This document shows, piece after piece, positions 11,375 to 39,241 of a stretch of DNA of 64,000 nucleotides. Location of the stretch: contig CALRGQ010000001.1 in NCBI GenBank assembly GCA_943357915.1, positions 6,816 through 70,815 of the forward strand, written 5' to 3'. Numbering within the stretch: position 1 is the first letter of the stretch; the number at the start of each line of letters is the position of its first letter. Made by a program: the position numbers and the translations under genes. Below the pieces are notes generated by a model. It had not been told where the DNA came from. It ran no database searches and saw only the letters and a program-made list of their open reading frames with translations. Source of the DNA: Candidatus Peribacteria bacterium. GTDB lineage: Bacteria > Patescibacteriota > Gracilibacteria > Peribacterales > Peribacteraceae.

Positions 11375-11416
11375 GGCTGCATTATAATCCATATATCTCA
11401 AAACGCAGGTATCCGT

Positions 11417-21645: not shown

Positions 21646-24600
21646 GCTGTAATAGTGTACTTTTTGACAGCTTCTTCTATCCGCTTCTCAAAAATCGGAG
21701 ACATAGTAACGGTGAGACCCACGGGGACAATTTCGGTACCAATTTTGAGCTGAATTTTTTCAGGTCCCGGAAACGTCTCAAAGACCGACTTCACTTCCAG
21801 TAGCAATTCTCTCGGTGCGCGGGCGGGGAGAGTGATAGTGTGGATGGAGATCTCCGTATTCACGGGATCTACGGAAGGCGCTACAGAATCTACGGGCACA
21901 GTAACGGCTGCTAACACTTCGCCTTCTTCACTGACAACCTCTACGGTCTCTTCGGTCTGACGACTCGCCGCACGCCAATTCATTGCTTCATCATCATTGA
22001 ACATGCCAGATGCTTTGGCATTCTTCACCATCGTTTCCAGTGACGCACACTTCATTGCTTCCATCTTGAGCTGCGGAGCGCCCATGCGCATATCGAGCGT
22101 GCCGGCCATCACCATGATCGAATCTGACTTTTCCAGCATATCTTTGTACTGCATATAGGTCCGCGGGAAGAGCATCACTTCGATCTTGCCCGTTGGATCT
22201 TCCAGAGTAATGATCGCCATGCTTTCACCTTTTTTCGTGTGCAGAACTTTCGTAGCCTCTACGATGCCCGCAACCGTCACTTTGCGCCCGACGTCATCAC
22301 CGGAAAGACTCTCGATGAGCCGTGCTTTCTTGCCAATATATTTTTTTAAGCCTGCAAGCGGGTGACTGCTGACATACAGACCGAGCGTTTCTTTTTCCCA
22401 CTGCAATTTTTTGTAACCGCTTGCCGGTTCCTGAGGATCAAATTCGATCGTCGCACCGGATGAACCGCGACCAAGTGACTCAAACATATCCGTCTGCGAC
22501 GCACCAACATCACCGGCTGATTTACTGAATTCGGCAATCTTGTCATATTGAGCCACCAGCACGCCACGCTCACCAAAGCAGTCCAGTGCTCCGGATTTTG
22601 CGAGCGACTCTAACAGTTTTTTATTGAGCAATTTGCTCGGAACTCTTCCGGCAAAATCTTCAACAGAGGCGAATTTTCCTTCTTTCTCACGCAGCTCAAT
22701 GATCTGACGAATAGAACTTTCACCAACTCCTTTCACGCCCAGTAAACCGAAACGAATATTGCCTTCCGGTAGTGCCGTGAAATGCGCGAGAGATTCATTG
22801 ACGTCTGGAGGAAGCACTTTAAGGCCCATGGCCCGAGCTTCTTCGATCTCAATGCTAATACGATCCGTGTCGCCAGCTTCACTGGAGAGAAGTGCAGCCA
22901 TGAATTCTGTCGGGTAATGCGCTTTCAGATATGCAGTCTCGTACGCAATGCGCGCGTAACAAGCACCGTGAGACTTATTGAAGCCATAGTTGGCAAACGG
23001 CGTGATGACGTCATCAAAAATGTTCACGGCAAGCTTCTCGGTGTAGCCACGAGACACAGTACCTTTGATAAACTTGTCACGCTGGGCATCCAGCTCTTTC
23101 TTGATCTTCTTACCGATAGCGCGCCGTAGCAAATCAGCTTCGCCAAGTGAAAACCCGGCAAAGACTTTGGCCATTTCGAGAATTTGTTCCTGATAAATAC
23201 CAACCCCGTGCGTCGGCTGCAAAATAGGCTCCATATCTTTATGGACATATGTCACGTCTTTTTCGCCGTGCTTGCATTTGATGTAATCCGGAATCTTTTC
23301 CATCGGACCCGGGCGGTACAAAGACACCATGGCCGTGATGTCATTTAAATGCGTTGGCTTGAGCTGCTTTAAATACCTGCGCATACCGGCGGACTCAAGC
23401 TGAAAGACGCCCGTGGTCTCACCACGTGACAGCAGTTCAAACGTTGGCTTGTCATCAGTTGGAATCGACTGGATATCGATTTTAACGCTATGAATACGCT
23501 CGATGATGAGAAGTGCCGTCTGGATAATCGTCAGGTTCTTAAGACCGAGAAAGTCCATCTTGAGGAGTCCTAACGCTTCCAATGGCTTGGCGTGAAACTG
23601 GGTGATGATCGTCTCTTCATCTTTGGGCGCACGTTGCAGTGCCGTGTAGTTCACCGCCGGCTCGGGCGTGATGACCACTCCACACGCATGCACCGAAACG
23701 TGGCGCGCTTTGCCTTCCAGCTTCAGTGCAATCTCGATGATTTTTTTGTACGTGTCATTCGATTCGATGGCGCCTGTAAGCTCATCAGTTGCGAGTGCTT
23801 CTGCGAGTGTGGTTCCTGGGCGATCTGAAATCACTTTCGCGAGTGCGTTCATTTCAGCAAAGGACACACCAAACGCGCGGCCAACGTCTTTCACAGCAGC
23901 TCTGGCGGCCAGTGTTCCAAATGTACAGATCTGGATGACACGATCAGCACCATATTTTTCGCGCACATACGCCAGCACTTCATCACGTCTGGTATCCGCA
24001 AAGTCGATATCAATATCCGGCATCGAGATGCGTTCCGGATTTAAGAACCGCTCGAAGAGTAATCCTTGTTCTAGGGGATCGAGTGTTGTGATATCCAGCA
24101 CATAACTGACAATAGAACCGGCAGCTGAACCGCGGCCGGGACCAACCGTAATGCCGCGGCGCTTCGCCTCTTGCACGAAGTCAGCGACGATCAAAAAGTA
24201 GCCTGAAAAGCCCATATTCTTGATGACATCCAGCTCAAATGCCATGCGATCTCGTACGATTTTCTCGTGCCCAGGATCTGCGTCTATTTGCTTCTTATAA
24301 CGCTTCAGGAGGCCTACCTCACACTGTGCTTTCAGGAGTGACTCTTCGGTATCTGCGCCCTGCACCGGAAATTTTGGAATCCGGTATTGGCCAAACTGAA
24401 TTTTCACATTACACCTATCAGCAATAATAGACGCGTTGTCGAATGCTTCAGGCGCATGCGCAAAAGCAGCGCGCATCTCGTCGTCTGGTCGCATCGAGAA
24501 GTCAGAGTCACGCATGCTAAATCTGCCGGCGTCACCAACGTTGGCATTTTTCTGAATGCACAGAAGCACATCATGCGCCTCGGCATCCTCTGTGCGACAG

Positions 24601-25235
24601 TAATGACTGTTACAGGTTGCAACGACGGGAACTCCGAGTTCTTTGCCGAACTGAATCAGTTGCTGATTGACTTCGCGCTGCCCAGGAACACTTGGGAGAT
24701 CCATCAATTCAAAATACAAATTCTCAGACCCAAAAAACGACCGATATTGCTCGGTCAGTAATTTCACGCGTTCAAAATCCTCCGCCAGCGCAGCCTGCGG
24801 AATAGCGCCACTGATCGGACCCGTAAGTGCGATCAAACCTTTTCCGTATTGCTTCAGCAATTCTGCATCTACACGCGGTTTGTAGTACATGCCTTCCAGC
24901 GCAGCACGCGTGGCAAGTGCTAGAAGATTGCGGTATCCCTCCTCATTTTCGGCAAGCAGTACCAATGGGTACCTGCGTGTATCGGCAGATGCCTCTTTAT
25001 CATGCCGTGTCCGAGCCGCAACGTATGTCTCAAGCCCGAGAATCGGTTTGATGCCCGCATCTTTAGCGGCTTTATAAAATTCGATAAGCCCGTATGTGTA
25101 GCCTTTATCAGCCAGACCAACAGACGTGTGGCCGAGTTCTTTCGCACGTTCGACAATCTCCTCAGGGCTCGGAAGGCCTTCTAGAAGCGAAAAGGTACTA
25201 TGACAATGCAGATGGACGAAACGCTCGGCGCTCAT
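21642..25235 (-). CDS. dnaE: DNA polymerase III alpha subunit
   Basis: PHP domain FVHLHCHSTFSLLEG, GRGSAAGSIVSYVLDITTLDP, MPDIDIDF, FGFNKSHGACYA, and a C-terminal OB region. 1197 aa. Confidence 0.95.
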   Translation of the reverse strand: MSAERFVHLHCHSTFSLLEGLPSPEEIVERAKELGHTSVGLADKGYTYGLIEFYKAAKDAGIKPILGLETYVAARTRHDKEASADTRRYPLVLLAENEEGYRNLLALATRAALEGMYYKPRVDAELLKQYGKGLIALTGPISGAIPQAALAEDFERVKLLTEQYRSFFGSENLYFELMDLPSVPGQREVNQQLIQFGKELGVPVVATCNSHYCRTEDAEAHDVLLCIQKNANVGDAGRFSMRDSDFSMRPDDEMRAAFAHAPEAFDNASIIADRCNVKIQFGQYRIPKFPVQGADTEESLLKAQCEVGLLKRYKKQIDADPGHEKIVRDRMAFELDVIKNMGFSGYFLIVADFVQEAKRRGITVGPGRGSAAGSIVSYVLDITTLDPLEQGLLFERFLNPERISMPDIDIDFADTRRDEVLAYVREKYGADRVIQICTFGTLAARAAVKDVGRAFGVSFAEMNALAKVISDRPGTTLAEALATDELTGAIESNDTYKKIIEIALKLEGKARHVSVHACGVVITPEPAVNYTALQRAPKDEETIITQFHAKPLEALGLLKMDFLGLKNLTIIQTALLIIERIHSVKIDIQSIPTDDKPTFELLSRGETTGVFQLESAGMRRYLKQLKPTHLNDITAMVSLYRPGPMEKIPDYIKCKHGEKDVTYVHKDMEPILQPTHGVGIYQEQILEMAKVFAGFSLGEADLLRRAIGKKIKKELDAQRDKFIKGTVSRGYTEKLAVNIFDDVITPFANYGFNKSHGACYARIAYETAYLKAHYPTEFMAALLSSEAGDTDRISIEIEEARAMGLKVLPPDVNESLAHFTALPEGNIRFGLLGVKGVGESSIRQIIELREKEGKFASVEDFAGRVPSKLLNKKLLESLAKSGALDCFGERGVLVAQYDKIAEFSKSAGDVGASQTDMFESLGRGSSGATIEFDPQEPASGYKKLQWEKETLGLYVSSHPLAGLKKYIGKKARLIESLSGDDVGRKVTVAGIVEATKVLHTKKGESMAIITLEDPTGKIEVMLFPRTYMQYKDMLEKSDSIMVMAGTLDMRMGAPQLKMEAMKCASLETMVKNAKASGMFNDDEAMNWRAASRQTEETVEVVSEEGEVLAAVTVPVDSVAPSVDPVNTEISIHTITLPARAPRELLLEVKSVFETFPGPEKIQLKIGTEIVPVGLTVTMSPIFEKRIEEAVKKYTITA

Positions 25236-25274: not shown

Positions 25275-28200
25275 TTACCGAGCTTTAAAAGCATGCGGTA
25301 GACGGTTTATCATCGATCGCTTGCGTAAGAAACTAGGCGTACTGATAGTACGGACTCGCAGAATTCGGCGGATTTGTGATACTGACTTTTTGCCTACTGT
25401 AGTCTTTACAGAGGTAGCTTTTGCAGGAGTGGCTCTCCATGAAGCACCTATCGCGGCACGTGCTTTCGCACCCTCCGTACTGCGAGCACCCGGACCAATT
25501 CCACCTCTTCCACCGCCACGCACCAAGCTTGGAGATGTACTGGTCGTACTTGTTGTTGTTGCCGTACTTCCGCCACTACTACCTCTGCAACTCCCTATTG
25601 TTCCGCCGCTATTCGTCAAACTACCGTACTCAATGTCATAGCAATTGTCTGATGGATCGAGATCAACATGATTCAACGTAAGCGTATCTGCTACAACCAA
25701 TGATGCACCGAGTGTGTAGTCGACAGTCGGAAACTGGGTTCCATCTGCAAGTGCAGCGACTTCGGCCGATGATAGCACGCGGTTATAAATTCGCGCTTCA
25801 TCGATCAGTCCAGTAAAGAAAATAGCGGGGTTACTGCTGGCGTTGATGTACGCTCCGATCATCACTTGTTGAATGCTGTTATACGTGTAGTTCGGGAGAT
25901 TGCTGCTTGTCAGCGTACCATCCGTAAGATCGCCATCAACATAAATAAACATTTGCCGATTTTGTGCATCATACATTGCGGCCACGTGATGCCATTCATC
26001 GTCATCCATACGCGTCAAGGATCGTTGTTCAACAGCTGTTCCAGAGCCTGGTGGAAAAACCCACAACTCAGGCTCATCATTGGTGTACAGAGCCCACTGT
26101 TTTTTGCGCGCGGTACTAGTATTTTCAACCGACTTTGTCATAAGCATGCCACTGGCACCGACAGATTTTATCCAGATGGACAGCGAGAAGGTTGATTCAA
26201 GTCCTTCGATGTCTCCCATATCTATGTAATCATTTCCTGAAAGGCTGAGACTGCCTCCATTGGAAAACTGATGATTCGAAGAATATTCGCTGGAATACAG
26301 CGGATCACCGACGTACGTTCCATGATGTCCAAACCCGGACGAATCGGCAGCTGTTGTGCCGCTTGTTTCATCAAATTTCCAATACGCCATAAGGCCTTCA
26401 CTCAATGTGACATCATGAAATGATGACGGCGGAGTCAGGATACGTCCCGAAGCAGACAATATTACTTCTCCGGAATTATGATTGAAGGTGCCAGCCGTGC
26501 GCGTAAACGTGCCGATAATAGTGAGTGTTCCAGATGGAGCCGTAAACGTTCCCCCGCTTACGCTGACATCGCCGGTAATATGCACATCACTGCCCTGCCC
26601 GTTAAAAGTTCCGGCACTCTGGCTATAGCTGCCGCGTATATACATATTTCCTGTCGATGGAGCTGTCATCGTAACATTCGGTCCTGTAATAGAAAGCCCA
26701 GGTAGCTCATCGTTGGCAGCCAGAGTGAGTGTCCGGACAGTATTGCCAGAGAGACGAAGTGTTCCATTCCCTCCGTCAAAAGGAGACTCATACACAACAT
26801 CGCCCGTTGCTTCTAGAATGCCTCCTCTCACATAACCATCGCTCAGCGTGAGCGTACCCGCGGCGGTAATGATGGTTCCTCCTGTCTGGACAGTATGAGA
26901 CGCATAGGAACCGGTCAGCGTCACATTATATAATGTATGGGTGCCGGAGAGCTGCTGCGTGCCGGCAAAAACTACTGTCGAAAGATTTGTCGTCGCATCA
27001 AGTGTGCCTAACGCATACGTCCAGTTTTTCGTGGTACGAATTGTTCCAGACAATGTGAGTGTCCCGGAAGGTTTATCGATAGTCAGAGCAATAAGGTCGC
27101 CTATACGGTTAGTGGAGTTTGAAGACAAAAGCTGATCTGCCGTACCATTAATATACAATTGTGCTGTTCCGGTATGAGTCAATGTGTCCGCTATCGTGAC
27201 ATCGCGCTTTGCATACATGGTGCCAGTGTTCATGGTAATAACACCGGCATTGGCTCCTTGATCAAGCGTCAAGCCTCCATTGACGGTGAGCGTTGTTGCG
27301 GAAGTAATCGTGACCGTCATCGCCGTCTTATATCCGTCAAATCGTACGTTATTGAGTGTGTGTGATCCTGCAATGGTGAGGGTTGCTCCAAACACAACGG
27401 TGCTCGTACCAGGGTCTATTGTTCCTCCGCTGTAGCTCCACGTTTTGGCTGTTCTGATGGTGCCAGAGAGAGTGAGCGTGCCTGAGGCTTTGTTGATGTT
27501 GAGGGGGATGAGTCCGCCCGTGGAATTCGTTGCATTCCCCGAGAGGAGCTGATCGCTTGTCCCATCGATAATGAGGTTTGTCGTTCCGGTGTGGTTCATC
27601 GTACTGTCGGGCAGGCTGATGTTACCTCTCGAACGAATGAATCCGCCGTTGATCGTGATAATGGCTGTACTGGAATTATCAATTGTGAGTGTGCCGTTCA
27701 CGATGAGCGTGGTATCGGATTTCACGGTGTATGTTCTGGCCGTCGCTGAGTTTTGATCAAAGATGACATTGGAAAGAGAGTGTGAGCCATTGATGCTGAG
27801 AGCAGCATCTCCGAAGACAACGGTGCTATTTGTAAACGCAAGTGTGCCTCCGCTGTAGTTCCAGTTATTGGCTGTACGAATCGTCCCAGAGAGTGTGAGT
27901 GTTCCCGTTGATTTATTCATGCGAAACAGAGGTAGCAGCCCTGCTGTTCTCGTCGCATTTCCTGTGAATGTTTGGTCACCAGTTCCTGTAGCTTCTATCC
28001 TTGCTGTCCCCCCATCAAACGTCGACGCTTGGACAATCGCACCTTGCGCTTGAATCGTACCAGCTGCGGGGATTGTCGTCTGAGACACGAGACCATCCGT
28101 CAGGGTGAGAGTATTTGTGACGATCAGCGTGTCACTGTTCGAGATGGTCTTTGTCGTCGCAGTCGTTCCATCGATCATAAGATTGTAGAGCGATAGTGTG

Positions 28201-28706
28201 GAATCAACGTTGATCGTCACAGAACCGCTCGTAAGCGCAACTGTCCCCGTTCCTGCGGTAAACGTAGAACCTGTATTCAGAGTGATGGCTCCTGCATTGG
28301 TGAAAGTTTGCCCATTCAATTGGAACGTACCTCCTGATTGGGTAAAAGTGGTAGACGTGAAAGAAGTATTGAGGGAAACAATGCCAGCGTAACCATTCTG
28401 AAACGTCGTTGTTGTGACGGTGAGGCTACTATTCACGACGGCTCCATTATCGCAATCTCTATCAAAGATAATCGTGTCAGTGGTCGTAGGAGCGGCGCTC
28501 GCATTCCCGCTGCCACAACTTGCTGGATCGGTTGTCTTCCAGTTACTCGCCACACTCGTACTTGCCCCATCATTTCCTACCCAGTAGAGCGTCGCAGCTT
28601 CTGCACTGAGAGGCACCATACAACCAATGGTCACAATCCCCGCGAGCCAGATATTCCGACTGCTCATACATACAGTGAGCCAGAAGGGGGCGAATGCTGA
28701 GATCAT
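25275..28706 (-). CDS. Secreted beta-helix-type repeat protein with LamG/concanavalin-like domain (last gene of the six-gene operon)
   Basis: Signal peptide ...IVTIGCMVPLSAEA. The Thr/Gly/Asn-rich region has three repeats of about 140 aa, each containing GTLTLSGTIRT(A/T)(N/K).W.Y. The LamG-like block is GLMAYWKFDETSGTTAADSSGFGHHGTY...LSIWIK...DEWHHVAAMYD...MFIYVDG...GLIDEARIYNRVLSSAEV. The tail is very basic. Confidence 0.8.
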   Translation of the reverse strand: MISAFAPFWLTVCMSSRNIWLAGIVTIGCMVPLSAEAATLYWVGNDGASTSVASNWKTTDPASCGSGNASAAPTTTDTIIFDRDCDNGAVVNSSLTVTTTTFQNGYAGIVSLNTSFTSTTFTQSGGTFQLNGQTFTNAGAITLNTGSTFTAGTGTVALTSGSVTINVDSTLSLYNLMIDGTTATTKTISNSDTLIVTNTLTLTDGLVSQTTIPAAGTIQAQGAIVQASTFDGGTARIEATGTGDQTFTGNATRTAGLLPLFRMNKSTGTLTLSGTIRTANNWNYSGGTLAFTNSTVVFGDAALSINGSHSLSNVIFDQNSATARTYTVKSDTTLIVNGTLTIDNSSTAIITINGGFIRSRGNISLPDSTMNHTGTTNLIIDGTSDQLLSGNATNSTGGLIPLNINKASGTLTLSGTIRTAKTWSYSGGTIDPGTSTVVFGATLTIAGSHTLNNVRFDGYKTAMTVTITSATTLTVNGGLTLDQGANAGVITMNTGTMYAKRDVTIADTLTHTGTAQLYINGTADQLLSSNSTNRIGDLIALTIDKPSGTLTLSGTIRTTKNWTYALGTLDATTNLSTVVFAGTQQLSGTHTLYNVTLTGSYASHTVQTGGTIITAAGTLTLSDGYVRGGILEATGDVVYESPFDGGNGTLRLSGNTVRTLTLAANDELPGLSITGPNVTMTAPSTGNMYIRGSYSQSAGTFNGQGSDVHITGDVSVSGGTFTAPSGTLTIIGTFTRTAGTFNHNSGEVILSASGRILTPPSSFHDVTLSEGLMAYWKFDETSGTTAADSSGFGHHGTYVGDPLYSSEYSSNHQFSNGGSLSLSGNDYIDMGDIEGLESTFSLSIWIKSVGASGMLMTKSVENTSTARKKQWALYTNDEPELWVFPPGSGTAVEQRSLTRMDDDEWHHVAAMYDAQNRQMFIYVDGDLTDGTLTSSNLPNYTYNSIQQVMIGAYINASSNPAIFFTGLIDEARIYNRVLSSAEVAALADGTQFPTVDYTLGASLVVADTLTLNHVDLDPSDNCYDIEYGSLTNSGGTIGSCRGSSGGSTATTTSTTSTSPSLVRGGGRGGIGPGARSTEGAKARAAIGASWRATPAKATSVKTTVGKKSVSQIRRILRVRTISTPSFLRKRSMINRLPHAFKAR

Positions 28707-30397
28707 TCAGCAGGGGCAAGGGGCAACGTCTCCTCTGTGCATGCCGGAATCATTTTTGCCTCCATCGCATCATACTTCGCCATATCCTCTGCGAAGTCGT
28801 TAGAACAATATCTCTTCCAGAATGTAGGATCTGTACTTTTTATTTCCTCATCACAATAACAACGTTTGACGGCATCCTCTTGGGTATACAACCCTGACAC
28901 ATATGGGTGACAATATGGATTAAACGTCCGCCTAGCGACGGCATCCAGCGTTTCCTTGCAATGGCCATCCACACACGAACGCGCGAGGAAATATGTCAGC
29001 TCAGGAATATACTTTTCCGGAAGCTCGGTATCGACAACTTTAATGAGTGCCTGCACCGCAGATTCCAGTGGAACGGATGCATCTTGCATACGCTGCAGTG
29101 CATCAGTGCTGCTACTTTCAAGAATGCCCATCTCGCGCTCAATATTGGAAGAGATTTCCCGCAGCTTGATGGACGTATCAGCCGTACGCGTAATGGCCAT
29201 GAAGAAGGAGTCGAACATGTCACTGATAAGATACCGAGGGAGCGGCCTTATGCCTCCGGTGTACTCACGCAGATCTGTAAACGAGCGCGTAAGGACGCCA
29301 GCGTTTGGCATGGTCAGAAAGTAATCGATCACCGGAAGATGCAACATTCCCGTTGGGAGCACATCTTCAGGCAACGGACTGTAGGTGTATGCCGGGGTGT
29401 CATCAATACGCAGATTATATGGCTCAAAGTAATCCGGGTACGCAGACAGAAGCGCATCGGTTTCGGCGGGATCTCCGGCTTCCAGATCTGGCTGGAGTGG
29501 CTTCAAACAACCCGACTGCTCGGCGTGTTCCGGCATCGGTTTGGCGCCGGGTGGCTCAGAGGCAGTAGTAGTGCCAGTCAAAACACCGATGACATTATTG
29601 AGGTTAAAGAGTGCTGTACTCACAGTGTCGTACAGTGAGCGTGACAGTTCGTCAGTACGCATCATGAAGTTCCTCAGTGTTGCAGCTTCTGTGTTATACG
29701 GAGGATCAATGATTTTCTCGAGAACGGTCGGATCACAACCAAAACTTCTGACATCAAATGACGCGTCGCCGGGTGCGGCACCTTCGCCAACGGGCGTTGG
29801 GAGAAAGCCAAGCGAATGCACACCGTAGTCTGTAGTGTATGGACAGAGTGGAGCGGTTGACCCAGTATCCGCAATAGGGCCTTTGGCACCAGCGTTTCGG
29901 AGGTCCATATCATGGAACGTGTAACGATAACGCAACCGATCATCTCGGTACGTCGGATTCGTCCCACCCTGCACAAACGATGCATACGCGCCGATGAGGA
30001 ACTCATACGTTTCCCGTAATGCCATACTGGTTGAGATTTTGCAGTTGTCCAAACTCAGCGCTTCATCCATTGCGTTCTGCACTTCGCGAATTTTGAGTTC
30101 TAGTAGATGCTTGTCACTCTGGAAACAGACCGTGCTTTCCCGGAGTGATGCAGCTTCGGCCTCGCGCTGCAATGCTGGGAACACAAGTTTCCGAATCACC
30201 GACTGGTTGTTTCTGATTTCGGACTGAAGTGTTTCACTCTCACATGACTTTTCCGGCAAACTCTGCGCGAGGCTGATGCCTTGGTCTGCGCGCTCAAGAA
30301 CCGCTTGTACCCACGGTGAGAGGGCTACGGTTCCGCTTGCAGCATGAGCCGAAAGCGGCATCACGAGAAAGCCTATGAGAAGAAAAAGATGCTTCAT
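28703..30397 (-). CDS. Secreted cysteine-containing hypothetical protein (operon gene 5)
   Basis: The start MKHLFLLIGFLVMPLSAHA is a signal peptide and overlaps the upstream stop as ATGA (30394-30397). The stop overlaps the next start as ATGA (28703-28706). No recognisable domain. Confidence 0.75.
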   Translation of the reverse strand: MKHLFLLIGFLVMPLSAHAASGTVALSPWVQAVLERADQGISLAQSLPEKSCESETLQSEIRNNQSVIRKLVFPALQREAEAASLRESTVCFQSDKHLLELKIREVQNAMDEALSLDNCKISTSMALRETYEFLIGAYASFVQGGTNPTYRDDRLRYRYTFHDMDLRNAGAKGPIADTGSTAPLCPYTTDYGVHSLGFLPTPVGEGAAPGDASFDVRSFGCDPTVLEKIIDPPYNTEAATLRNFMMRTDELSRSLYDTVSTALFNLNNVIGVLTGTTTASEPPGAKPMPEHAEQSGCLKPLQPDLEAGDPAETDALLSAYPDYFEPYNLRIDDTPAYTYSPLPEDVLPTGMLHLPVIDYFLTMPNAGVLTRSFTDLREYTGGIRPLPRYLISDMFDSFFMAITRTADTSIKLREISSNIEREMGILESSSTDALQRMQDASVPLESAVQALIKVVDTELPEKYIPELTYFLARSCVDGHCKETLDAVARRTFNPYCHPYVSGLYTQEDAVKRCYCDEEIKSTDPTFWKRYCSNDFAEDMAKYDAMEAKMIPACTEETLPLAPAE

Positions 30398-32355
30398 GGT
30401 GCGGGCGATACTGGGGTACACGGAGAATTTGTACACTGGCTTGTTCCAGGGCCCGGGACAATCTCACACATGTTGTTAATGCACTCCGTGTGGCTTAGCG
30501 CTGGCAAGGATGAACGGAACATACCAGTCCACGGACATGCACTTTGGGTGAGGGGAGCGCGCTTGAGTTCCAGAAACGTATCCGCGATGTGCTGCACAAA
30601 GAATGCGAGTTTTGCAAACATCTTGCGTTCCAGTTCTATCGACTGATCTAACGCCACGCGCTGGCCGATGGATGCAGCGATGGACGTGAAGTCATCACCG
30701 CGTTTCAAAAGAAATTTCTGAATATTCACCGTCGTCTGAGCATTCGTATGCTGACTCTGTATCGGAAGCGCAGCATTTTCGTTGTCGTTGTAGGCGCACA
30801 GACCAAGCAGCGGCTGCGGAGCATCACCATTTTTGGAGCAGTATTGCCTTTCAAAATCGCGTACCAAAAACTGTCCAAGATATTCAGGGAGTGGATAGGG
30901 TGAGTCTTCGGCGATCTCAGTGTAGAGCCCGAGCTGCGGATCTGGACGAATACAGGCTAAGTACGGCGACGTCGCTTCATTGAGTACCACCGGATTACGG
31001 TTGGGGATCAGCGTATGACCGTTCATCGACTGCTTCAGACAGAGGCTTATATAACAAGCATTGGATGTGATGTCATCGGGGTAGATTACTTTCTTTTCGG
31101 GCGAACAAATTTCACTCACGTCGGCTGCCGTGAGAGCCGGATTCACCTGGCCCCGGTTCTCGGGATCTTCGAGTGGCGTGCCGTTATCCGTAAAAAGATT
31201 TTTAAACCCTGGGCAGATCGAGGGACCGCTGGTTGTTTCGGTCACTGCGTCAGGATCTTCCGGACACTGGACAAGCATGATACTTGATCCGTCCCCTGTG
31301 TTGTCACAATTTTCTGCAGTCGGGGGTTGTGGACGGCACAAATAACCTTCACGTCCGATCATGCGACTACAGAGTGGAGACTTGATACCAGCACCTGAGG
31401 GAGGAATACCACCGCCATACGCAAAAGGGTACGCAAGATTCTCGCCATTCTTTTTGAATTCTGGATACTGATCTGCGGGATTAAGCGTCAGACGAAATGC
31501 ACCCGTCGGGTAGATCCACATCAAGCCAATATCGTCTTTACGCGCCCATAGCGCTACGTTATGAACACTCAGTTTTGGTGTCAGGAAAATACCGATGGCC
31601 TCAGGATTGCCGGGGGTAATCTTCAATGTATCTGCGATATTTTTCAGATCATATCCAACCGAATCAACAATGCCTGAAAATCTCGGATCTTTTTCTCGTT
31701 GATCACGGAAATATCCGTGGTGAAAACGCAGTACAGCTTTCTCTAGATCTTCTGGGCTAAGACTCGTGAGGTTCGTATCCAGTCCGGTCAGCTGAGCATC
31801 GGCAGTGCCATCCCACGGGATCACAGAAGCACCCGTACCGGACCACACTCGCCTCAGCAGCAGTGAATAGAGTGCCATATCCAGTGGCCGATGAGGTTCA
31901 TCCGCAACTGCGAGCTCTGAACTACTGGCAAGTGTCATGAGGTCAGCGCCAAAATTTTCTATGTCTTTCTCGGCATTCAGCAGCGACACAATACCAGACC
32001 GCAATGCGAGACAGCTGCCCGGCACCGTCGCAGCGCCCTGGATGAATTCGTATGGCTTACCAGCCATATCTTTTTTGTCCTGACAGAGTCCATCGTTCTC
32101 ACCGGTAAAGATCGTCCCTGCAATCGCACGGTCAATGTCATCAGCTGTGATCTGAATACCTCGGCCATTCCATGACTCAAATTCTTTGATAATAAACTGT
32201 GCGATTCGGTCCGTGGGTTTTGCATCAGACACAGATTGCTGCATTTGGTCATAGAAGAGATCAAACATCGTTTTTTTCGCCGGCTCTGCAGCCATGGTCA
32301 CGGAGGAACTGAGAGTTCCGATCATCACGCCGACAGTCAGAAGAAATATACGCAT
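30394..32355 (-). CDS. Secreted cysteine-rich hypothetical protein (operon gene 4)
   Basis: Signal peptide MRIFLLTVGVMIGTLSSSVTMA. 653 aa, with a Cys-rich C-terminus (SACPW...HTECINNMCEIVPGPGTSQCTNSPCTP). The start shares one nt with the upstream stop (TAATG). Confidence 0.75.
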   Translation of the reverse strand: MRIFLLTVGVMIGTLSSSVTMAAEPAKKTMFDLFYDQMQQSVSDAKPTDRIAQFIIKEFESWNGRGIQITADDIDRAIAGTIFTGENDGLCQDKKDMAGKPYEFIQGAATVPGSCLALRSGIVSLLNAEKDIENFGADLMTLASSSELAVADEPHRPLDMALYSLLLRRVWSGTGASVIPWDGTADAQLTGLDTNLTSLSPEDLEKAVLRFHHGYFRDQREKDPRFSGIVDSVGYDLKNIADTLKITPGNPEAIGIFLTPKLSVHNVALWARKDDIGLMWIYPTGAFRLTLNPADQYPEFKKNGENLAYPFAYGGGIPPSGAGIKSPLCSRMIGREGYLCRPQPPTAENCDNTGDGSSIMLVQCPEDPDAVTETTSGPSICPGFKNLFTDNGTPLEDPENRGQVNPALTAADVSEICSPEKKVIYPDDITSNACYISLCLKQSMNGHTLIPNRNPVVLNEATSPYLACIRPDPQLGLYTEIAEDSPYPLPEYLGQFLVRDFERQYCSKNGDAPQPLLGLCAYNDNENAALPIQSQHTNAQTTVNIQKFLLKRGDDFTSIAASIGQRVALDQSIELERKMFAKLAFFVQHIADTFLELKRAPLTQSACPWTGMFRSSLPALSHTECINNMCEIVPGPGTSQCTNSPCTPVSPAP

Positions 32356-33323
32356 TATTGTTTTCGGTCGTGAATGGACGTTGTCGCGTCCCAGATTTTT
32401 GGCATGCAGCTCACCGCATCGGCAAGAAGACTCATCTCATTCTTCAGGTCCAGCGAGGCACGCTGATAACAGACAAACTGGCGCGCAATCGCATAATTCA
32501 TCTCAAATGAACGCATGGTGCTGATTGTCCGCTCCACTGCAATGCGTGATACTTCTCGCTCCTGAAACAAGCTTGCATGCAGTGCGGGGGCTCGGCTTGC
32601 CAAATCAGACACAAATAATGCAACGGAACATTCATTGCCGCAGAACGGATCTTCCGTGAGTGGAGATAGACAGGCTGAAGCATCCTTCTGCTCCCTGCAA
32701 CCAGCTTCGATACAACAGAATTGCGTTGGGGTGTCTGAATCCTTCTTGAGATCAATGTCTTGATTACGCGACACTTCCGAAATTGTACGATCTTGCAATT
32801 CAGTGAGTTTACATTCGTACTCTCGCTGAAACTCAGCGACGATGGCGCCAAATGACGCAAATGTCACCGGCCGCGACACGGGAACAGTCGCTGCTCCAAA
32901 AAGCAGTGGCACTGTCACACGGTAATGCCAGCCGGGTAACTCGTTCGCAAGTTTCCGTAGCTCGGGAATTGCCGGTTCTCCGGAAGCTCCTGAGCCGCAT
33001 TTCCATTCGGACGGCGTCTTCAGAATCTTCTCTCGTTCGCCAACAACTGCAGACATGGATTTTTTATACATCGCACGAGCAAGACCAAGGTTTTCAATGT
33101 TCTGGAACATCGTGCCGTCTGATGAGCATGTACGCAGACTCTCTTCTGGTCTTCCTGATGAGCTGCTGCTAGTACCAGGTCCGCCAAGCACATCACCACG
33201 CAGAAACCGTGAAGAACCGGCAACCGCAAACAGAACGAGAATCGTGAGCACCAGGAGCTGATACTTTTTCAACATGAGTTTTGCCTGACGATAGCCAATG
33301 GTAAAAGATTTTTGCACGCTCAT
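32355..33323 (-). CDS. N-terminally membrane-anchored cysteine-rich hypothetical protein (operon gene 3)
   Basis: A TM segment or signal anchor (YQLLVLTILVLFAVAGSS) is followed by a Ser/Gly linker. I count 11 Cys. ATGA overlap with the upstream gene (33320-33323). Confidence 0.7.
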   Translation of the reverse strand: MSVQKSFTIGYRQAKLMLKKYQLLVLTILVLFAVAGSSRFLRGDVLGGPGTSSSSSGRPEESLRTCSSDGTMFQNIENLGLARAMYKKSMSAVVGEREKILKTPSEWKCGSGASGEPAIPELRKLANELPGWHYRVTVPLLFGAATVPVSRPVTFASFGAIVAEFQREYECKLTELQDRTISEVSRNQDIDLKKDSDTPTQFCCIEAGCREQKDASACLSPLTEDPFCGNECSVALFVSDLASRAPALHASLFQEREVSRIAVERTISTMRSFEMNYAIARQFVCYQRASLDLKNEMSLLADAVSCMPKIWDATTSIHDRKQ

Positions 33324-34054
33324 GGTGTGAGGTCGTCGGTATTTGGGTTATCACATTGCCCAATGAAACACGGAATTTGATGTAGTTTTCCGAGCATGTT
33401 CACCATCACGGAAATAGCTTTCACGACCTCAGTCGGAAATCCTTGGAGCATCCAATCCACCATACCTGCAAGCTGCAAAAGTGCGCGGTAGCCGCTGTCG
33501 TACGCCACAGCTAACCGCAGCACCGCACGTTCCCCCTCCAATGTTTCATCAGCCAATTGCTGACAGTTTCGGACGACACCCGTGGCTTCGGATTGGAGTT
33601 TGGCGTTTTCATCCGGTGTACCGGCAAAATAGCATTCACCGTACCGTTTCACTTCCTGCTTGGCACAGCCGAGAATCTTGAGGTCAAACGGCTCGGTGTT
33701 GTTATAGGAAAACGATGCAGTCGCAACCTGACAGACTGCAAGTGTGCGACAGCGGTACACACGGTAACTTTCGACTATCGGCTCTATGAGTTCCGATGTC
33801 ATCCGATTTTTTGTCTCGAAAATACCCGTGCGCTCTTCATCGGTCTGTCCGCCAGTAAGCGCGATAATCTTGTCATCATTGTCTTTACGACTTCCAAACA
33901 AGCGTGATCTCCACTCGTCATGAACCGTAGTCATTTCTTCGGTAATCTTCTGGAAACACGTACCTTGGTCAGCAGCACTGGCAAGTGGAACCCAGGACCC
34001 CAAGAGGGAAATAGTAGAGACTACCGCCGTCAGATTAAGAAATAATTTCTTCAT
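33320..34054 (-). CDS. Secreted cysteine-rich hypothetical protein (operon gene 2)
   Basis: Signal peptide MKKLFLNLTAVVSTISLLGSWVPLASA. I count 8 Cys in 244 aa. ATGA overlap with the upstream gene (34051-34054). Confidence 0.7.
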   Translation of the reverse strand: MKKLFLNLTAVVSTISLLGSWVPLASAADQGTCFQKITEEMTTVHDEWRSRLFGSRKDNDDKIIALTGGQTDEERTGIFETKNRMTSELIEPIVESYRVYRCRTLAVCQVATASFSYNNTEPFDLKILGCAKQEVKRYGECYFAGTPDENAKLQSEATGVVRNCQQLADETLEGERAVLRLAVAYDSGYRALLQLAGMVDWMLQGFPTEVVKAISVMVNMLGKLHQIPCFIGQCDNPNTDDLTP

Positions 34055-37000
34055 GGCACACGGGGAACGGTCAACTTGGTTATGATCGGCAAGTCTAGAT
34101 TTGGAAAGATCCGCTCCAGCGTTGTACGACTGGCGTTGATGTAAGGGTTCTGGTCTTCCTCTGGAAGTGAATTTTCGCGAATGCGAGCCGCAGCATACGT
34201 AAAATTACCACCTCTGCTATCGGGCATGAACCACTGCCATGTCGTCACCGTGCTCTTTTCCGGTGGCAAGAAATAACATACGACGTCTTCATGACATTCT
34301 TCCGGCATTTCTGCATTTCGACGTACAACACGCCCCGCAAAATCTTCATCCCGATTTGGCATCCAGCGCGAGAATAATCGCGCCAAGCGCTCCCGTAGGT
34401 CACTCTCTACGTGGATGATTTTGGCCGGATTGCCTTTCTCATCGTTGGTATCACTATGGTCAACTCTGGCCGAGTCCGAGAAGTGGCGATCATCATTTGA
34501 ATCTGGCGGAATCAGGATACTTGGCGGGAAACGGCAGTACGCACCACGCATGCTCTCTCGGTCGAGCGGGAAATTGTCATCGCCACCATCGATGGACTCA
34601 CCCGCAGCAAGCGCTGCCTCTTCGTTGATCTGTGTATCAATATCCGTACCATCAATCATGGTGCGAAAGTTCCTAAGAATAATTTTTGCTGCCTCAAGGT
34701 CAGAGGTTTCTGGCGGTCTAATAAGTGATTTATCGGGAAGCGTCACTTCCGGTACCGGAAAATCCTCGAAGATTTTTTCATCCGGCAGTTCCGGCAAATC
34801 TGGAAAATTATCTACAGTAGATGGCATAACACCGACGAGCGGTGGCGTCGGAAGATTCACACGAACCTGCACCGGCCACAATGTTGGAATCAGCCACGGC
34901 TCTGAGGGGAACTTCACATCTGAAAAATCAAAGAGTTGGTCTTTAGGTTGCTCATACTCAAGGTCCGTGAGGCTTTGCGGCGGTTGGTAACCTCGGTCAC
35001 GACTTTCCCCAGCCTCGACGTCTCCCCACCAGTCATCCAGAAGTGAATACACTGGCGCCGAATACCGTTGGTTGCTGCACCAGTACATCTGGCACGCATC
35101 GGTCTGGAGCATGGCTCGCTGCAAGAGCCGCCAAATACGCTTGAGTTCACGACGTTCTACCGCACGCTCCTGAGACGCCAGCAGAAGCTCACTATTCTCT
35201 TCATACCAGTCAGCAAAGTACTCACGAATTTTTTTCTGAGAGTCGTATAATTTTTGAAGATACGTCAGAAGTGCGCCACGCATGAGACGCGTTTTCTCGA
35301 CGTGGTCTCGGTACTGCTCTAGTTTTACTATCAGCGGATCTGCTTTGGTGGACATTTCCTGCAATGCCGAAGCCTGCGCAAGGAGAACTGCGCTTGCCAC
35401 GGGATCCGAGACAGCGGCACGTGTCGTCAGCTTGAGTGACTCCGTGAGTGTGTCTTGCTTCCAAAGTTTCCAATCTGCAATGCGCGCATCGATCTCGGTC
35501 ACTGATGCCAACGGTACCAATACCGGAATACGTACTTCCTGAATGGGCGCGACGAAGATGCGCTGAAACGACTTGAGCACGTTTCCAATGTCTTCAAGCC
35601 CCGCCTTGAGCGTGATCTCCACCATACCATCCGACCGCGAGACTGTCTGACTGACGTACTGAAACAGCGGGTCATCATCCGCAAGACCGACCAAAAATCT
35701 AGCCGGCATGATCAGTCTTGTTTGAGGATCGGCGGTCATTTTCAGTAACTCACGCTGCTGCGCTTCCAGATAGATAGCCATCTTGCGTTCATCACTATCA
35801 TCAAACTGATCAGTACGTGCATTTTTGGGTACCGTTTTGCTACCGGTTTGGCGAGTCGTAATGAGCGTTCCAAGAATGGCCGTGATATCGGTGGGGTCAT
35901 CAAACTTTTTCTGCTGTTCTTTTAGTTTTTTCATGTCGATCATCGTGAGATTCGTCTCAGTATCGGCTATCCAAGGATCCGGAACATTGCGGTTATCACG
36001 ATCCGGCTCACGCGTGATATCAACATCAGCTCCTGCCTCTGGCCCTTCATCCCGCTTCGGTGGTTGTTTCTGCTCATTCTCACCGAACCACTCGGGCTTC
36101 TTTGGAGTTTGCTCTCCATCTGTTGCAATGACAAATTCGCACTGCTCATCTTCTTTACTCGTCACAACTGTTTTTGGGTCAAACTCTTTGTAGTACTCAT
36201 AACACTCTGCTCGCACGTTCCAGGTGTTATCTGAACCGGGAGCAGTGACCGTAATACCGGGCTCCATAAAGTTGCCGGCATAATGGCGGTAGAACGAAGC
36301 TTGAACATCATCGATTATTTCCGGTTCATCTTCAATAACCGCTCCGGTGTCGGGATCTATATGGCAGACAGGCGGTGTATAAGAAAAGGATGGCGCATCG
36401 CGTGTGCGACAATCTTGGCCACGACACTCACTGGTGTAATCAAAGCAATATTTTTCTGGAACCGGACAGTCCGGATCGCCAATCATCGGACGACCTGCGG
36501 CATCGATGTCTGCCCCCATCTGTTTGATTGCATCAAAGAGTTTTTTGCACCATGTGGGCGTTGCCTTTTCCATCTTTTCTCCTCGCATGCACCACTGCAT
36601 GGGATTCATGTCAGTACTCGTGACGTCACACGCGGACCTAAAACCAAACGCGCTATCCGGGTACTCAAAGCCTCCACGCTCGCCAAGGCCACTGGAAGGC
36701 GCACCAAGGGGATCACTATTACCTCTTCCTGGAAGTGTCACTGTGTCCTCAGAACCATCTGGATTTACTGCAGAGAAACGTGGGACTGGTACGTTACCGA
36801 TGACAGCACCTTCTGCAGCATCAGATATTTTTTTGATGGTATCCAAAATACTTTGTACCCGTGACGGGGGATTGCTGACAAGGTTTTGACAGCTTGTTGT
36901 TGTTGCCGGAGAATTTGTGACTGACGTAAGGAGTGCGTCAATATATCCTGGTGGGAAAACTTCACGACTGCAGGCATAGGGGCCATATCCACTACAACTG

Positions 37001-37560
37001 ACATTTGACCACGCCGCAATACAGCCAACAGCGGTCAGGGTGATTCCATTGACCGGATTTTCAAATAATCCATCGGCTGCCATCGCACCACAGCTCGTCG
37101 TGTATGCTTCTCTTTCTGCACTGCAACACTCTGTTCTAGTAGTCGCAAGAGGCTCTCCTGGAGCCTTGCTACAAAATTGTTTCGCATGAACCAGTTCGTG
37201 CATGAGTACGTAATCCCATTGGCGACCAGTGGCATCTAGATTTGAAAGACAGATTGGAACATCTCCATTTGGCTCCTTAGGATAGGTAAAACCAGCATTC
37301 CCCTCACAGCTTTGAATACCACCAACGCAGGTGATAACCGGCCGACATGACGTTGCTCCATTGACGACAGTGGCATCGGAAAGATTCGTCCAGCCGCCAC
37401 ACTCCACACCTTCAATGTTCTCACGCATTTCGCTTAAACCAAACTGCACATCCTTATACGACTCCGGTACGTTAATTTTCGGAATGAACTGTGCTGCCAC
37501 AGCGCTGCCCGATAAGAGCAGTGAAGCCGAGACAACCGATGCCATCAGTGAAGGGCGCAT
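34051..37560 (-). CDS. Large secreted protein with Cys-rich N-terminal HExxH-motif domain (operon gene 1)
   Basis: Signal peptide MRPSLMASVVSASLLLSGSAVAA. At least 13 Cys fall in the first ~230 aa. It carries YVLMHELVHAKQF (HELVH, nt 37186-37200), acidic and Pro-rich middle segments, and totals 1169 aa. Confidence 0.8.
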   Translation of the reverse strand: MRPSLMASVVSASLLLSGSAVAAQFIPKINVPESYKDVQFGLSEMRENIEGVECGGWTNLSDATVVNGATSCRPVITCVGGIQSCEGNAGFTYPKEPNGDVPICLSNLDATGRQWDYVLMHELVHAKQFCSKAPGEPLATTRTECCSAEREAYTTSCGAMAADGLFENPVNGITLTAVGCIAAWSNVSCSGYGPYACSREVFPPGYIDALLTSVTNSPATTTSCQNLVSNPPSRVQSILDTIKKISDAAEGAVIGNVPVPRFSAVNPDGSEDTVTLPGRGNSDPLGAPSSGLGERGGFEYPDSAFGFRSACDVTSTDMNPMQWCMRGEKMEKATPTWCKKLFDAIKQMGADIDAAGRPMIGDPDCPVPEKYCFDYTSECRGQDCRTRDAPSFSYTPPVCHIDPDTGAVIEDEPEIIDDVQASFYRHYAGNFMEPGITVTAPGSDNTWNVRAECYEYYKEFDPKTVVTSKEDEQCEFVIATDGEQTPKKPEWFGENEQKQPPKRDEGPEAGADVDITREPDRDNRNVPDPWIADTETNLTMIDMKKLKEQQKKFDDPTDITAILGTLITTRQTGSKTVPKNARTDQFDDSDERKMAIYLEAQQRELLKMTADPQTRLIMPARFLVGLADDDPLFQYVSQTVSRSDGMVEITLKAGLEDIGNVLKSFQRIFVAPIQEVRIPVLVPLASVTEIDARIADWKLWKQDTLTESLKLTTRAAVSDPVASAVLLAQASALQEMSTKADPLIVKLEQYRDHVEKTRLMRGALLTYLQKLYDSQKKIREYFADWYEENSELLLASQERAVERRELKRIWRLLQRAMLQTDACQMYWCSNQRYSAPVYSLLDDWWGDVEAGESRDRGYQPPQSLTDLEYEQPKDQLFDFSDVKFPSEPWLIPTLWPVQVRVNLPTPPLVGVMPSTVDNFPDLPELPDEKIFEDFPVPEVTLPDKSLIRPPETSDLEAAKIILRNFRTMIDGTDIDTQINEEAALAAGESIDGGDDNFPLDRESMRGAYCRFPPSILIPPDSNDDRHFSDSARVDHSDTNDEKGNPAKIIHVESDLRERLARLFSRWMPNRDEDFAGRVVRRNAEMPEECHEDVVCYFLPPEKSTVTTWQWFMPDSRGGNFTYAAARIRENSLPEEDQNPYINASRTTLERIFPNLDLPIITKLTVPRVP

Positions 37561-37793
37561 AGACAGAGCGGGATTCTTCCCGCGGCTTTCCGCGATCGCG
37601 TTTCAGTGTACGTTACGAGCTGTCATTCCTCCTATAATAGACAGACCAAAAATCGGCTATCAGAAAACAAAAATATTTTCCTTCAATCTTTTCTCATTGC
37701 GATGATATTTTGAGAGGTGTACGTTCGTGCACGATTCATCGTTCGCGAGCCTTGAATCACGAGACCTCCTTTACTTCCATACCCCCCTCAGCG

Positions 37794-38654
37794 ATGTTCT
37801 CTCTGAATCGCATCGACATCATCGGCTACCAAACACAACCCGTCACCGTCCGCCAAACTCCCGGCGGCGCGAGTGTGACCGACCTTAACATTGTCGTTCC
37901 CTACTCATTTCAGTCCAGCAAAGGGGAAACTCTTTCCGGTAAAAGTTTTCACACCGTCACCATCTGGGGTGCGATGGCTGATGTTGCCGGTCAGTACATG
38001 AAAGCCGGCTCACAAGTTTTCGTCTCCGGCCGTCTGCAGACTGATGCCTGGGATGATACAACAAGCGGTGAGAAGCGCAGCAAAACCAAAATCGTGGCCA
38101 TGGATTTGATCCTTCTGGATCCCAAAGACGGCCAGCGCGAAGCTCCAGCCGGCGCAAGCAGCCTTACGAATTGCGTGAACCGCGCTCAGGTTGTTGGTAA
38201 TATCACTCGTGATCCTGAGATGCGCACGACGACGAGTGGCCAGTCCGTTCTGACCATCGGTGTTGCGACGAATGAACGCTGGAAAGATAAAGCCTCCGGC
38301 GAATTCAAGGAACGCTCTGAGTTTCATAACGTCGTGATCTGGGGCGACATGGCAAAATCCGTCCAGCAAAACGTGAAGAAAGGCCAACGCGTCTACGTCA
38401 CCGGCCGCGTCCAAACTCGTACATGGGAAACAACGGAAGGCAAAAAGCGCGCCACGACGGAAATCATTGCCGACCAAGTCACACTGCTTGGTATGAAGAA
38501 CGCCGAAGCCGCTGCAAACTTCAATGCCGAAGGCGCATCTGAGTCATCCACGCCATCACGCTCTGAAGCTTCATCTGGTGCTTCGCCAGTGGCTGCCGGC
38601 ATGCCGGATATTAAATACGAATCTGAGATCAAACCGGAGGATTTGCCGTTTTAG
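37794..38654 (+). CDS. ssb: Single-stranded DNA-binding protein with two tandem OB folds and a C-terminal acidic tip
   Basis: OB1: MFSLNRIDIIGYQTQPVTVRQTPGGASVTDLNIVV...FHTVTIWGAMADVAGQYMKAGSQVFVSGRLQTDAW. OB2: VNRAQVVGNITRDPEMRTTTSGQSVLTIGVATNERWKD...FHNVVIWGDMAKSVQQNVKKGQRVYVTGRVQTRTWE. A low-complexity tail ends EIKPEDLPF. I chose the ATG at 37794 rather than the tracked 37710. Confidence 0.85.
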   Translation: MFSLNRIDIIGYQTQPVTVRQTPGGASVTDLNIVVPYSFQSSKGETLSGKSFHTVTIWGAMADVAGQYMKAGSQVFVSGRLQTDAWDDTTSGEKRSKTKIVAMDLILLDPKDGQREAPAGASSLTNCVNRAQVVGNITRDPEMRTTTSGQSVLTIGVATNERWKDKASGEFKERSEFHNVVIWGDMAKSVQQNVKKGQRVYVTGRVQTRTWETTEGKKRATTEIIADQVTLLGMKNAEAAANFNAEGASESSTPSRSEASSGASPVAAGMPDIKYESEIKPEDLPF

Positions 38655-38691: not shown

Positions 38692-38893
38692 TGATCAATC
38701 TATGAGACGTGCGCGCCTCTCGGCCATGAGCTCGAGGCCGAATGGCCGCTCGTCTCTACAGAACAAACGATCAACCCTCGTCCATTCGTGGCGGGGGTTC
38801 TTTGTTACCTTTAGGCTTATCTATGGCATAAAACACATCTACGATGCAAAGTATTTGCCAAAGAATGTCATTGTATTATTGTGGAGCTGTTCT

Positions 38894-39241
38894 ATGGCTC
38901 CCCAAGAAACTATTACAGCAGCAGACTTTCAATCAAAAATTGGTGGTGATGAAGTTGTAGTCGTAAAATTTGGCTATCAAGGTTGCAACGCTTGCCAAAA
39001 GTACGATAAAACAACAGTAAAAATACTAGAAAAAGAATTCCCAACAGTACCCTTCTTAGAAGTTGATGTGCATGACACGGAGAACTCTACCAATGAGGCA
39101 GCAAGAAATATGAAAAGGACCGTGGGTGTTTTCGACGGTTTTCCTACAATTCATTTTTTTAGTAACGGTAAATTATTAGATACAGTGCGGGGAGGAAATG
39201 CAGCAGCAATTCGTAGTAAACTGCAATATTTATTACAGTAG
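38894..39241 (+). CDS. Thioredoxin-fold protein (CxxC = CNAC)
   Basis: MAPQETITAADFQSKIGGDEVVVVKFGYQGCNACQKYDK...FDGFPTIHFFSNGKLLD has the thioredoxin layout with a cis-Pro region. I chose the internal ATG at 38894. The gene is visibly AT-rich. Confidence 0.7.
   Translation: MAPQETITAADFQSKIGGDEVVVVKFGYQGCNACQKYDKTTVKILEKEFPTVPFLEVDVHDTENSTNEAARNMKRTVGVFDGFPTIHFFSNGKLLDTVRGGNAAAIRSKLQYLLQ

Follow-up and report, generated by a model that had tools for sequence, protein, structure and literature searches.

We analyzed a stretch of 64,000 nucleotides of Candidatus Peribacteria DNA (the window), from the candidate phyla radiation (CPR)/Patescibacteria. To our knowledge, the Peribacteria are uncultivated and without a cultured member, and how CPR/Patescibacteria cells interact with their environment and with putative hosts is poorly understood. 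A block of six large genes lies in the window between dnaE (21642-25235) and an ssb gene with two OB folds (37710-38654). We named these genes g1 to g6 in transcription order. An earlier account made from the letters and their translations (the sequence-only reading) had described six consecutive open reading frames (ORFs) on the minus strand, and the ORF list reproduced them with the same lengths, that of g5 being 564 amino acids from its ATG.

g1 (34051-37560; 1169 amino acids) has a signal peptide, a variable N-terminal part, a core that is conserved across its family (34366-36303, residues ~420 to 1065), and a long helical hairpin (residues 687 to 831). g2 (33320-34054; 244 amino acids) has a signal peptide and a cysteine-rich chain. 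g3 (32355-33323; 322 amino acids) has a probable signal anchor, a Ser/Gly linker, and a Cys-containing ectodomain. g4 (30394-32355; 653 amino acids) is the most conserved of the first five, with a signal peptide, a helical N-domain, and a 65-residue C-terminal helix (residues 535 to 599). g5 (28703-30397) has a signal peptide, a conserved N-terminus (ALSPWVQ), and a Cys-rich C-terminus; an alternative ORF from an upstream GTG (28703-30436) would give 577 amino acids. g6 (25275-28706; 1143 amino acids) has a signal peptide, three ~140-amino-acid repeats, a LamG domain, and a basic tail. The junctions are ATGA overlaps at g1/g2, g2/g3, g4/g5, and g5/g6 and a TAATG overlap at g3/g4, as the sequence-only reading had described from the same DNA.

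The divergent ssb/g1 intergenic region (37561-37709) is the sole noncoding gap upstream of the block and the presumed promoter region. Promoter and terminator scans were at chance level, with one weak sigma-70-like match (37663-37634, minus strand) that was not above chance. The block has a GC content of 0.49 to 0.51, the same as the rest of the window. Nearby are murA, ftsW, murG, a cyclophilin gene, gltX, and murB on one side and dnaE, sua5, and aspS on the other.

We compared this region with 27 loci, found by scanning a single genome for each GTDB species, whose titles are Candidatus Peribacteria, Peribacterales, Peribacteraceae, or Peregrinibacteria. We added four distant loci (L032 to L035), the closest relative (L036), and the complete genome of Ca. 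Peribacter riflensis. In tblastn searches with the window proteins, the order murB..ssb(-) / g1 g2 g3 g4 g5 / dnaE sua5 was present in every sufficiently long locus among the 27. No fetched locus had a missing or reordered g1 to g5 gene wherever the contig allowed a check. The four distant loci were low-scoring matches of the g1 profile that we inspected in their own contigs, and all had the same context, ftsW-murG-PPIase-gltX-murB-ssb / five genes / dnaE. Their DnaE proteins are 67 to 69% identical to that of the window, whereas g1 to g5 are only 22 to 36% identical, and a hidden Markov model (HMM) of each of g1 to g5 matched only the correspondingly placed gene. In Ca. Peribacter riflensis, ORFs 963 to 967 (1030, 279, 263, 821, and 521 amino acids) lie between ssb and dnaE with 4-nucleotide overlaps, and all five are annotated "hypothetical protein" (PMC4736985, supplement 2). 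In loci with gene calls, most junctions keep overlaps of 1 to 8 nucleotides or gaps of less than 30 nucleotides.

The conserved unit is therefore five genes, g1 to g5 (28703-37560), and not the six that the sequence-only reading had joined. They are neither scattered nor absent in the relatives compared. The arrangement is not incidental, for the Peribacteria keep both its order and its position, and the placement of the block in the core chromosome by the sequence-only reading holds. We read g1 to g5 as a vertically inherited, single-locus core trait of Peribacteria and as neither an island nor an enzyme pathway.

A word-indexed search of sequence collections found only 23 g1 clusters and 67 to 69 g4 clusters. 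All of the clusters with a source name were Peribacteria hypothetical proteins (most were unnamed), and the g4 score distribution ended sharply. When the g1 profile was used in an exhaustive HMM search, the family grew to 212 representatives at 50% identity, 141 of them at E <= 1e-30, with scores down to ~115 bits among the 150 listed. The named g1 representatives were Candidatus Peregrinibacteria or Peribacter sp. hypothetical proteins, and an identical g1 protein is also on a contig of GCA_943354375.1. Distant orthologues can be far longer than the window proteins, up to 1836 amino acids for g1 and 760 to 986 for g4 (L032 10001-15511 and 17494-20454; L034; L035). Therefore, the variable regions accept large lineage-specific insertions.

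g6 is outside the conserved unit. It had no tblastn match in any locus except copies of the window itself. It is absent even from L036, the closest relative, in which g1 is 1028 amino acids and 73 to 76% identical and g5 runs straight into dnaE. In other genomes, the slot after g5 holds unrelated cargo. For these reasons, we regard g6 as strain specific, a recent arrival whose translation became coupled to that of g5. Its LamG domain, which the sequence-only reading had recognized, is supported by a Laminin_G_3 (PF13385) match at residues 823 to 984 (25755-26240, minus strand; 70.9 bits against a cutoff of 27.6, E 1.7e-19), but the beta-helix-type repeats named with it were confirmed by no profile. 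Three repeats of ~140 amino acids (GTLTLSGTIRT...) can be seen by eye in the translation, and they were not recovered by Tandem Repeats Finder or self-BLAST. Neither they nor the basic tail had a match. Residues 765 to 988 matched Laminin_G_3 and, in part, the NCBIfam models TafC and NTNH, and we rejected g6 as a TafC equivalog (score 49.8 against a cutoff of 410).

Different genomes carry different cargo between g5 and dnaE, which makes this slot an insertion hot spot; in the window (25275-28706), the cargo is the LamG protein. In L035 (19949-20389), the slot holds a 146-amino-acid prepilin-like (N_methyl) gene, the only prepilin-like gene that we found. In L022 (11914-13538) and L026 (17807-20548) it holds RRM-like and ATPase ORFs, and in L005 (8199-9129) a 289-amino-acid ORF. 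In L010, L017, L029, and L031, dnaE is not adjacent to g5.

A second part that varies between genomes lies inside g1. The HExxH motif that had been noted in the first gene is HELVH at residues 121 to 125 (37186-37200), with Glu residues ~25 to 30 positions downstream. It is part of a Cys-rich insertion containing HELVHAKQFC (residues ~60 to 250; 36811-37383, minus strand). Of 23 close g1 homologues (alignment A1), 5 carry the insertion, as do 10 of 146 full-length family representatives, whereas L036 lacks it. Its fold matches were weak only (collagenase H, E 0.39; SprT-like, E ~1), and it had no peptidase match in Pfam or NCBIfam. We regard it as an accessory, putatively zincin-like module. 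Because so few homologues and representatives carry it, the proteolytic surface machine that the sequence-only reading had suggested as one possible role is unlikely.

Profile searches placed none of g1 to g5 in a known family. There was no match in Pfam (E <= 1), NCBIfam, PHROGs, or PADLOC, nothing meaningful in PDB sequence profile searches, and no tblastn match in phage and plasmid collections. When every g2, g3, and g5 orthologue was searched against Pfam at E <= 1, we obtained singleton noise only. Pfam gave no prepilin N_methyl match in g1 to g6 and no match to the MCE domain (PF02470) or to Cys-rich repeat families in g1 to g5; the neighbors of the block are ssb and dnaE. One distant g5 orthologue (L034) had a weak match to DUF4215, a Myxococcus Cys-rich repeat. 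We also considered paralogy among g1 to g5, which was rejected by hhalign (maximum probability 36%, over a 42-column Cys motif of g4 and g5).

AlphaFold2 (AF2) models were made for g1 and g4. The g4 model (predicted local distance difference test [pLDDT] score, 70.9; predicted template modeling [pTM] score, 0.59) has a well-predicted helical domain (residues 30 to 245), a Cys-rich region with little secondary structure, and the 65-residue C-terminal helix. The g1 model (pLDDT, 68.8; pTM, 0.48) has the HExxH insertion as an alpha/beta unit, a beta-rich region (residues 255 to 480), a disordered acidic linker, an alpha/beta domain, and the helical hairpin, which contains a 92-residue helix. At E <= 0.001, Foldseek matched neither g1 (PDB and BFVD) nor g4 (PDB), and g4 had no match in PDB even at E <= 1. 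The long helices had only generic, nonsignificant coiled-coil, BAR, and XaxA resemblances. We rejected the collagenase H, SprT-like, and XaxA fold resemblances of g1 as nonsignificant. Thus, the profile and Foldseek checks proposed with the sequence-only reading bear out its statements that these proteins have no recognizable family and match no known secretion, pilus, or toxin system. g1 to g5 appear to be genuinely new families without detectable relatives outside one CPR class, and g1 and g4 also appear to be without fold relatives.

Cysteines are the most conserved feature of g1 to g5. The totals are 28 in g1 (13 of them within the first 230 amino acids), 8 in g2, 11 in g3, 18 in g4, and 13 in g5, or 2.3 to 3.4% Cys. 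The earlier counts for g1, g2, and g3 agree with these, and g6 has only 6 cysteines (0.52%). All eight g2 cysteines (C33, C102, C108, C130, C141, C164, C229, and C234) are invariant in 26 orthologues (alignment A2). Invariant cysteines number 13 in g1 (23 sequences, A1), 5 in g3, 11 in g4 (with 3 more nearly so), and 10 in g5 (alignment A4). The strongest motifs are near the C-termini: IPCFIGQCD in g2, SCMPKIWD..SIHDR in g3, ACPWTG in g4, and a C-rich tail in g5. The conserved C-terminal motif of g2 in alignment A2 is LGKLHQIPCFIGQCD, and that of g3 is SCMPKIWDAxTSIHDR (alignment A3). Conserved segments with a hydrophobic periodicity of 3.5 residues occur in all five proteins. Across 146 g1 representatives, 56 columns are at least 80% identical, all within residues 422 to 1065. 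These are mostly W, Y, P, C, and R and therefore look like a structural rather than a catalytic signature.

g1 to g5 evolve under constraint. For the least saturated genome pair (L016/L023), the ratio of nonsynonymous to synonymous substitutions (dN/dS) is 0.09 to 0.14 for g1 to g5, and that of their neighbors is 0.07 (dnaE), 0.18 (ssb), and 0.12 (murB). Therefore, they are real genes under purifying selection. Their mean pairwise amino-acid distances over 16 genomes are 0.59 to 0.65, about twice those of the housekeeping neighbors (0.27 for dnaE, 0.35 for ssb, and 0.40 for murB). After housekeeping divergence was regressed out, the residual distances correlated among g1 to g5 (r 0.67 to 0.94), compared with r 0.14 to 0.33 with ssb. 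This hints at co-evolution of the five.

Export signals were also as the sequence-only reading had proposed. A Kyte-Doolittle scan found exactly one hydrophobic segment in each of g1 to g6, always N-terminal, and it is kept in orthologues. In translations of g1, g2, g4, g5, and g6, an AxA-type motif closes this segment. As judged from these features, g1 to g6 fit Sec-exported proteins, in which an N-terminal hydrophobic region follows basic residues and precedes a small-x-small cleavage motif. g3 has a basic N-terminal tail of ~22 residues followed by a 16-residue uncharged stretch (residues 23 to 38; 33210-33257, minus strand), which ranges from 15 to 22 residues in orthologues. In 27 g3 orthologues, the uncharged run starts at a median of residue 23, compared with residues 4 to 6.5 in the other four proteins. 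The conserved basic tail argues for probable retention of the g3 segment as a signal anchor.

Enzymes that could oxidize exported cysteines are known from this radiation: CPR bacteria encode MdbA/VKOR-type extracytoplasmic disulfide enzymes (10.1101/335083). The window also has a thioredoxin-fold gene with a CNAC motif (38702-39241, plus strand), found between ssb and murB in this genome only. We considered this adjacent thioredoxin as a dedicated extracytoplasmic oxidoreductase and rejected it; its position is not conserved, and because its called form of 115 amino acids has no signal peptide, the cysteine-rich proteins that are exported probably do not have it as their own oxidase. Elsewhere in the window is a gene for a secreted protein of 575 amino acids with two SLH domains (9674-11401, minus strand). 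This is consistent with a Gram-positive-type wall bearing SLH-anchored surface proteins in this organism.

The explanation that we favor, with moderate confidence, is that g1 to g5 form a Sec-exported, disulfide-stabilized hetero-oligomeric complex of the cell surface or envelope; we infer its physical assembly, its anchoring by g3, and its surface function. Five unrelated proteins would be made together from one translationally coupled transcript, exported by Sec, oxidized outside the cytoplasm, and assembled outside the cytoplasmic membrane. g3 would tether the complex to the membrane through its basic cytoplasmic tail and single hydrophobic helix. The C-proximal amphipathic helices and Cys motifs of the five, including the helix of ~90 residues in g1 and that of ~65 residues in g4, might form a shared core or stalk, and the more variable parts might face outward. 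The periodic segments of all five proteins, taken with the long helices of g1 and g4, fit such an arrangement. The HExxH insertion and the LamG protein g6 would be two accessory modules added in this strain. Because g1 to g5 diverge fast, surface exposure is favored. The most likely role is structural or contact mediating at the cell surface, for example in partner-cell contact or envelope architecture, and on present data a contact or adhesion role cannot be separated from an architectural one.

Several points weigh against this explanation. The fixed core locus, the universality, and the apparent single copy (no second copy was seen, but copy number was not assessed genome-wide) favor housekeeping envelope machinery and are more typical of it than of host adhesins. 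Coupling and co-conservation are also compatible with proteins that work one after another and never bind. The rate correlation is confounded by shared phylogeny and saturation. Because the hydrophobic stretch of g3 is only ~16 residues, it could be a cleaved signal peptide, which would leave no identified anchor; regex scans found no LPXTG or lipobox in g1 to g5, or in g6, and Pfam found no SLH domain in g1 to g5. Finally, with AF2 models of only moderate confidence, a fold match could have been missed.

A bolder version of the surface complex is possible, and we offer it tentatively. g1 to g5 might be a new type of cell-surface nanomachine, made of five new families with at least two new folds, that is universal and essential in Peribacteria and mediates their interface with partner organisms. 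One form that it could take is a coiled-coil spike, anchored in the membrane and braced by disulfides, that crosses the wall and S-layer.

The main alternative is that g1 to g5 are an extracytoplasmic machine that serves cell wall growth, division, or the biogenesis of the envelope. They would then form or regulate a scaffold at the wall, acting together with the neighboring peptidoglycan genes and not in contact with other cells. The conserved neighborhood in distant genomes, lspA / ftsW-murG-PPIase-gltX-x-murB-ssb / g1-g5 / dnaE-sua5, would fit this, as would strong purifying selection and a universal, vertically inherited block that is always at one conserved locus, ~20 kb from the probable origin of replication. 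However, we found no hydrolase, transpeptidase, glycosyltransferase, or other enzymatic domain in g1 to g5, and the conserved residues of g1 are not a catalytic set. Furthermore, gltX, ssb, and a strand switch separate the block from the mur and fts genes, and evolution about twice as fast as that of murB, ssb, and dnaE would be unusual for core wall machinery. We therefore consider a wall machine doubtful. If it is true, a bacterial class uses noncanonical components for a core process.

Less probable again is that g1 to g5 are secreted effectors or toxins directed at a host, perhaps membrane-active helical proteins, that are co-regulated but act independently and form no stable complex. Export signals on all of them and fast sequence divergence agree with this. 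The helical region of g1 also has a very weak fold resemblance to the alpha-pore-forming toxin XaxA, to BipD, and to SPECT (E 3 to 10), but these matches are far from significant (probability <=0.3) and of a kind that any long helix tends to give. Sets of effectors usually differ between genomes in their members and their location, whereas here the genes keep their order, their number, and their junction overlaps throughout the class. Selection is also purifying overall, not diversifying. Independent effectors are therefore unlikely.

The sequence-only reading leads to a different machine, an integral, possibly proteolytic surface assembly of six subunits with the LamG protein and HExxH as core parts. 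The ATGA overlap that couples g6 to g5, the g6 signal peptide, and the HExxH motif of g1 with its downstream Glu would all fit it. We think it very improbable, because no other locus has g6, not even that of the relative whose g1 is 73 to 76% identical, the slot after g5 is filled by unrelated cargo in other genomes, and 136 of the 146 family representatives lack the HExxH module.

That g1 to g5 are cargo of a mobile element, prophage, or defense island between ssb and dnaE is refuted for practical purposes: the proteins are large and uncharacterized and another part of the window (12 to 16.6 kb) looks acquired, but the block shares the GC content of the window, has no integrase or flanking tRNA, has no match in PHROGs, PADLOC, or the phage and plasmid collections, and is in the identical position in genomes with DnaE only 67% identical.

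The part of the window that looks acquired is a low-GC (0.37 to 0.41), strongly AT-skewed block (11814-16571, plus strand) that is a single ORF of 1585 amino acids, with tRNA-Leu(tag) alongside (16827-16912). The ORF had only a weak ATPase_2 match and none in PADLOC; it may be a STAND/AAA-type gene that arrived by horizontal transfer. A probable oriC is the AT-rich intergenic region at 57279-57695, upstream of dnaN (56121-57278, minus strand), where the GC content from 56 to 58 kb is 0.41. Three sites that resemble DnaA boxes lie in 100 bp of it (57543-57642), and one is a perfect box (TTATCCACA); the box count over the whole window is not above chance. This location would put the operon ~20 to 29 kb from the origin. 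The ssb gene (37710-38654, plus strand) encodes two PF00436 OB-fold domains in one chain of 286 to 314 amino acids, and ssb genes of 285 to 296 amino acids are at the same position in other Peribacteria loci. Double-OB single-stranded DNA-binding proteins occur in Deinococcus-Thermus, and the Peribacteria protein is reminiscent of them.

Uncharacterized lineage-specific operons are commonplace in CPR bacteria. Because the five-gene cassette is universally retained, exported, and made of families without detectable relatives, it is a lineage-defining candidate for a surface structure underlying the Peribacteria lifestyle. It is also a synteny marker for the Peribacteria clade. For structural biology, g1 to g5 are five compact proteins whose complex could be predicted, which could be expressed recombinantly, and which could be matched by cryo-electron tomography in groundwater filtrates. 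The depth of the families, from at least 67 sequence clusters for g4 to 212 for g1, is sufficient for such work.

Cysteine-rich giant extracellular proteins have been described in Ca. Peribacter riflensis, with signal peptides and a proposed role in attachment or rigidity (Anantharaman et al. 2016, PMC4736985). g1 to g5 are from the same lineage, have signal peptides, and are cysteine enriched. However, the giants have 2.4 to 11% Cys (mostly 5 to 11%), are 580 to 3860 amino acids long, carry pappalysin-like or Myxococcus Cys-rich repeats, and vary between strains (PMC4736985), whereas g1 to g5 have 2.3 to 3.4% Cys, have no such repeats, and are universally conserved. We also considered whether g1 to g5 are the published Peribacteria Cys-rich cluster itself and rejected this, since ORFs 963 to 967 are not in its Table S4 (PMC4736985). 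Full-text searches of the literature on cysteine-rich proteins of Peribacteria and Peregrinibacteria gave no description of the five-gene cassette. g6 alone, over residues 765 to 988, is like LamG/ConA-like surface proteins (the TafC fimbrial family and NTNH), although the rest of it, repeats and basic tail, is unmatched and the TafC score is below the cutoff.

Two other kinds of operon resemble g1 to g5 by analogy, but no test placed g1 to g5 in either of them. Mycobacterial Mce operons encode six tandem Mce proteins that form a hetero-hexameric coiled-coil needle. g1 to g5 are likewise tandem, tightly coupled, and N-terminally anchored or exported, with long helices, and a hetero-oligomer in the envelope is presumed for them too. 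Unlike Mce proteins, they have no MCE/MlaD domain, are nonparalogous, and are cysteine rich, and the block has no YrbE permease or ATPase genes. Mycoplasma P140/P110 is an operon-encoded heteromeric adhesion complex of a reduced-genome bacterium. g1 to g5 have no sequence or fold similarity to it, are five in number, and mostly have signals that can be cleaved, and the wall of the organism is monoderm and bears SLH proteins. Even so, both are lineage-restricted and operon encoded, in small-genome, host-dependent bacteria (for Peribacteria, host dependence is inferred only), and both combine fast divergence with a constant architecture, in what for g1 to g5 would also be a surface complex.

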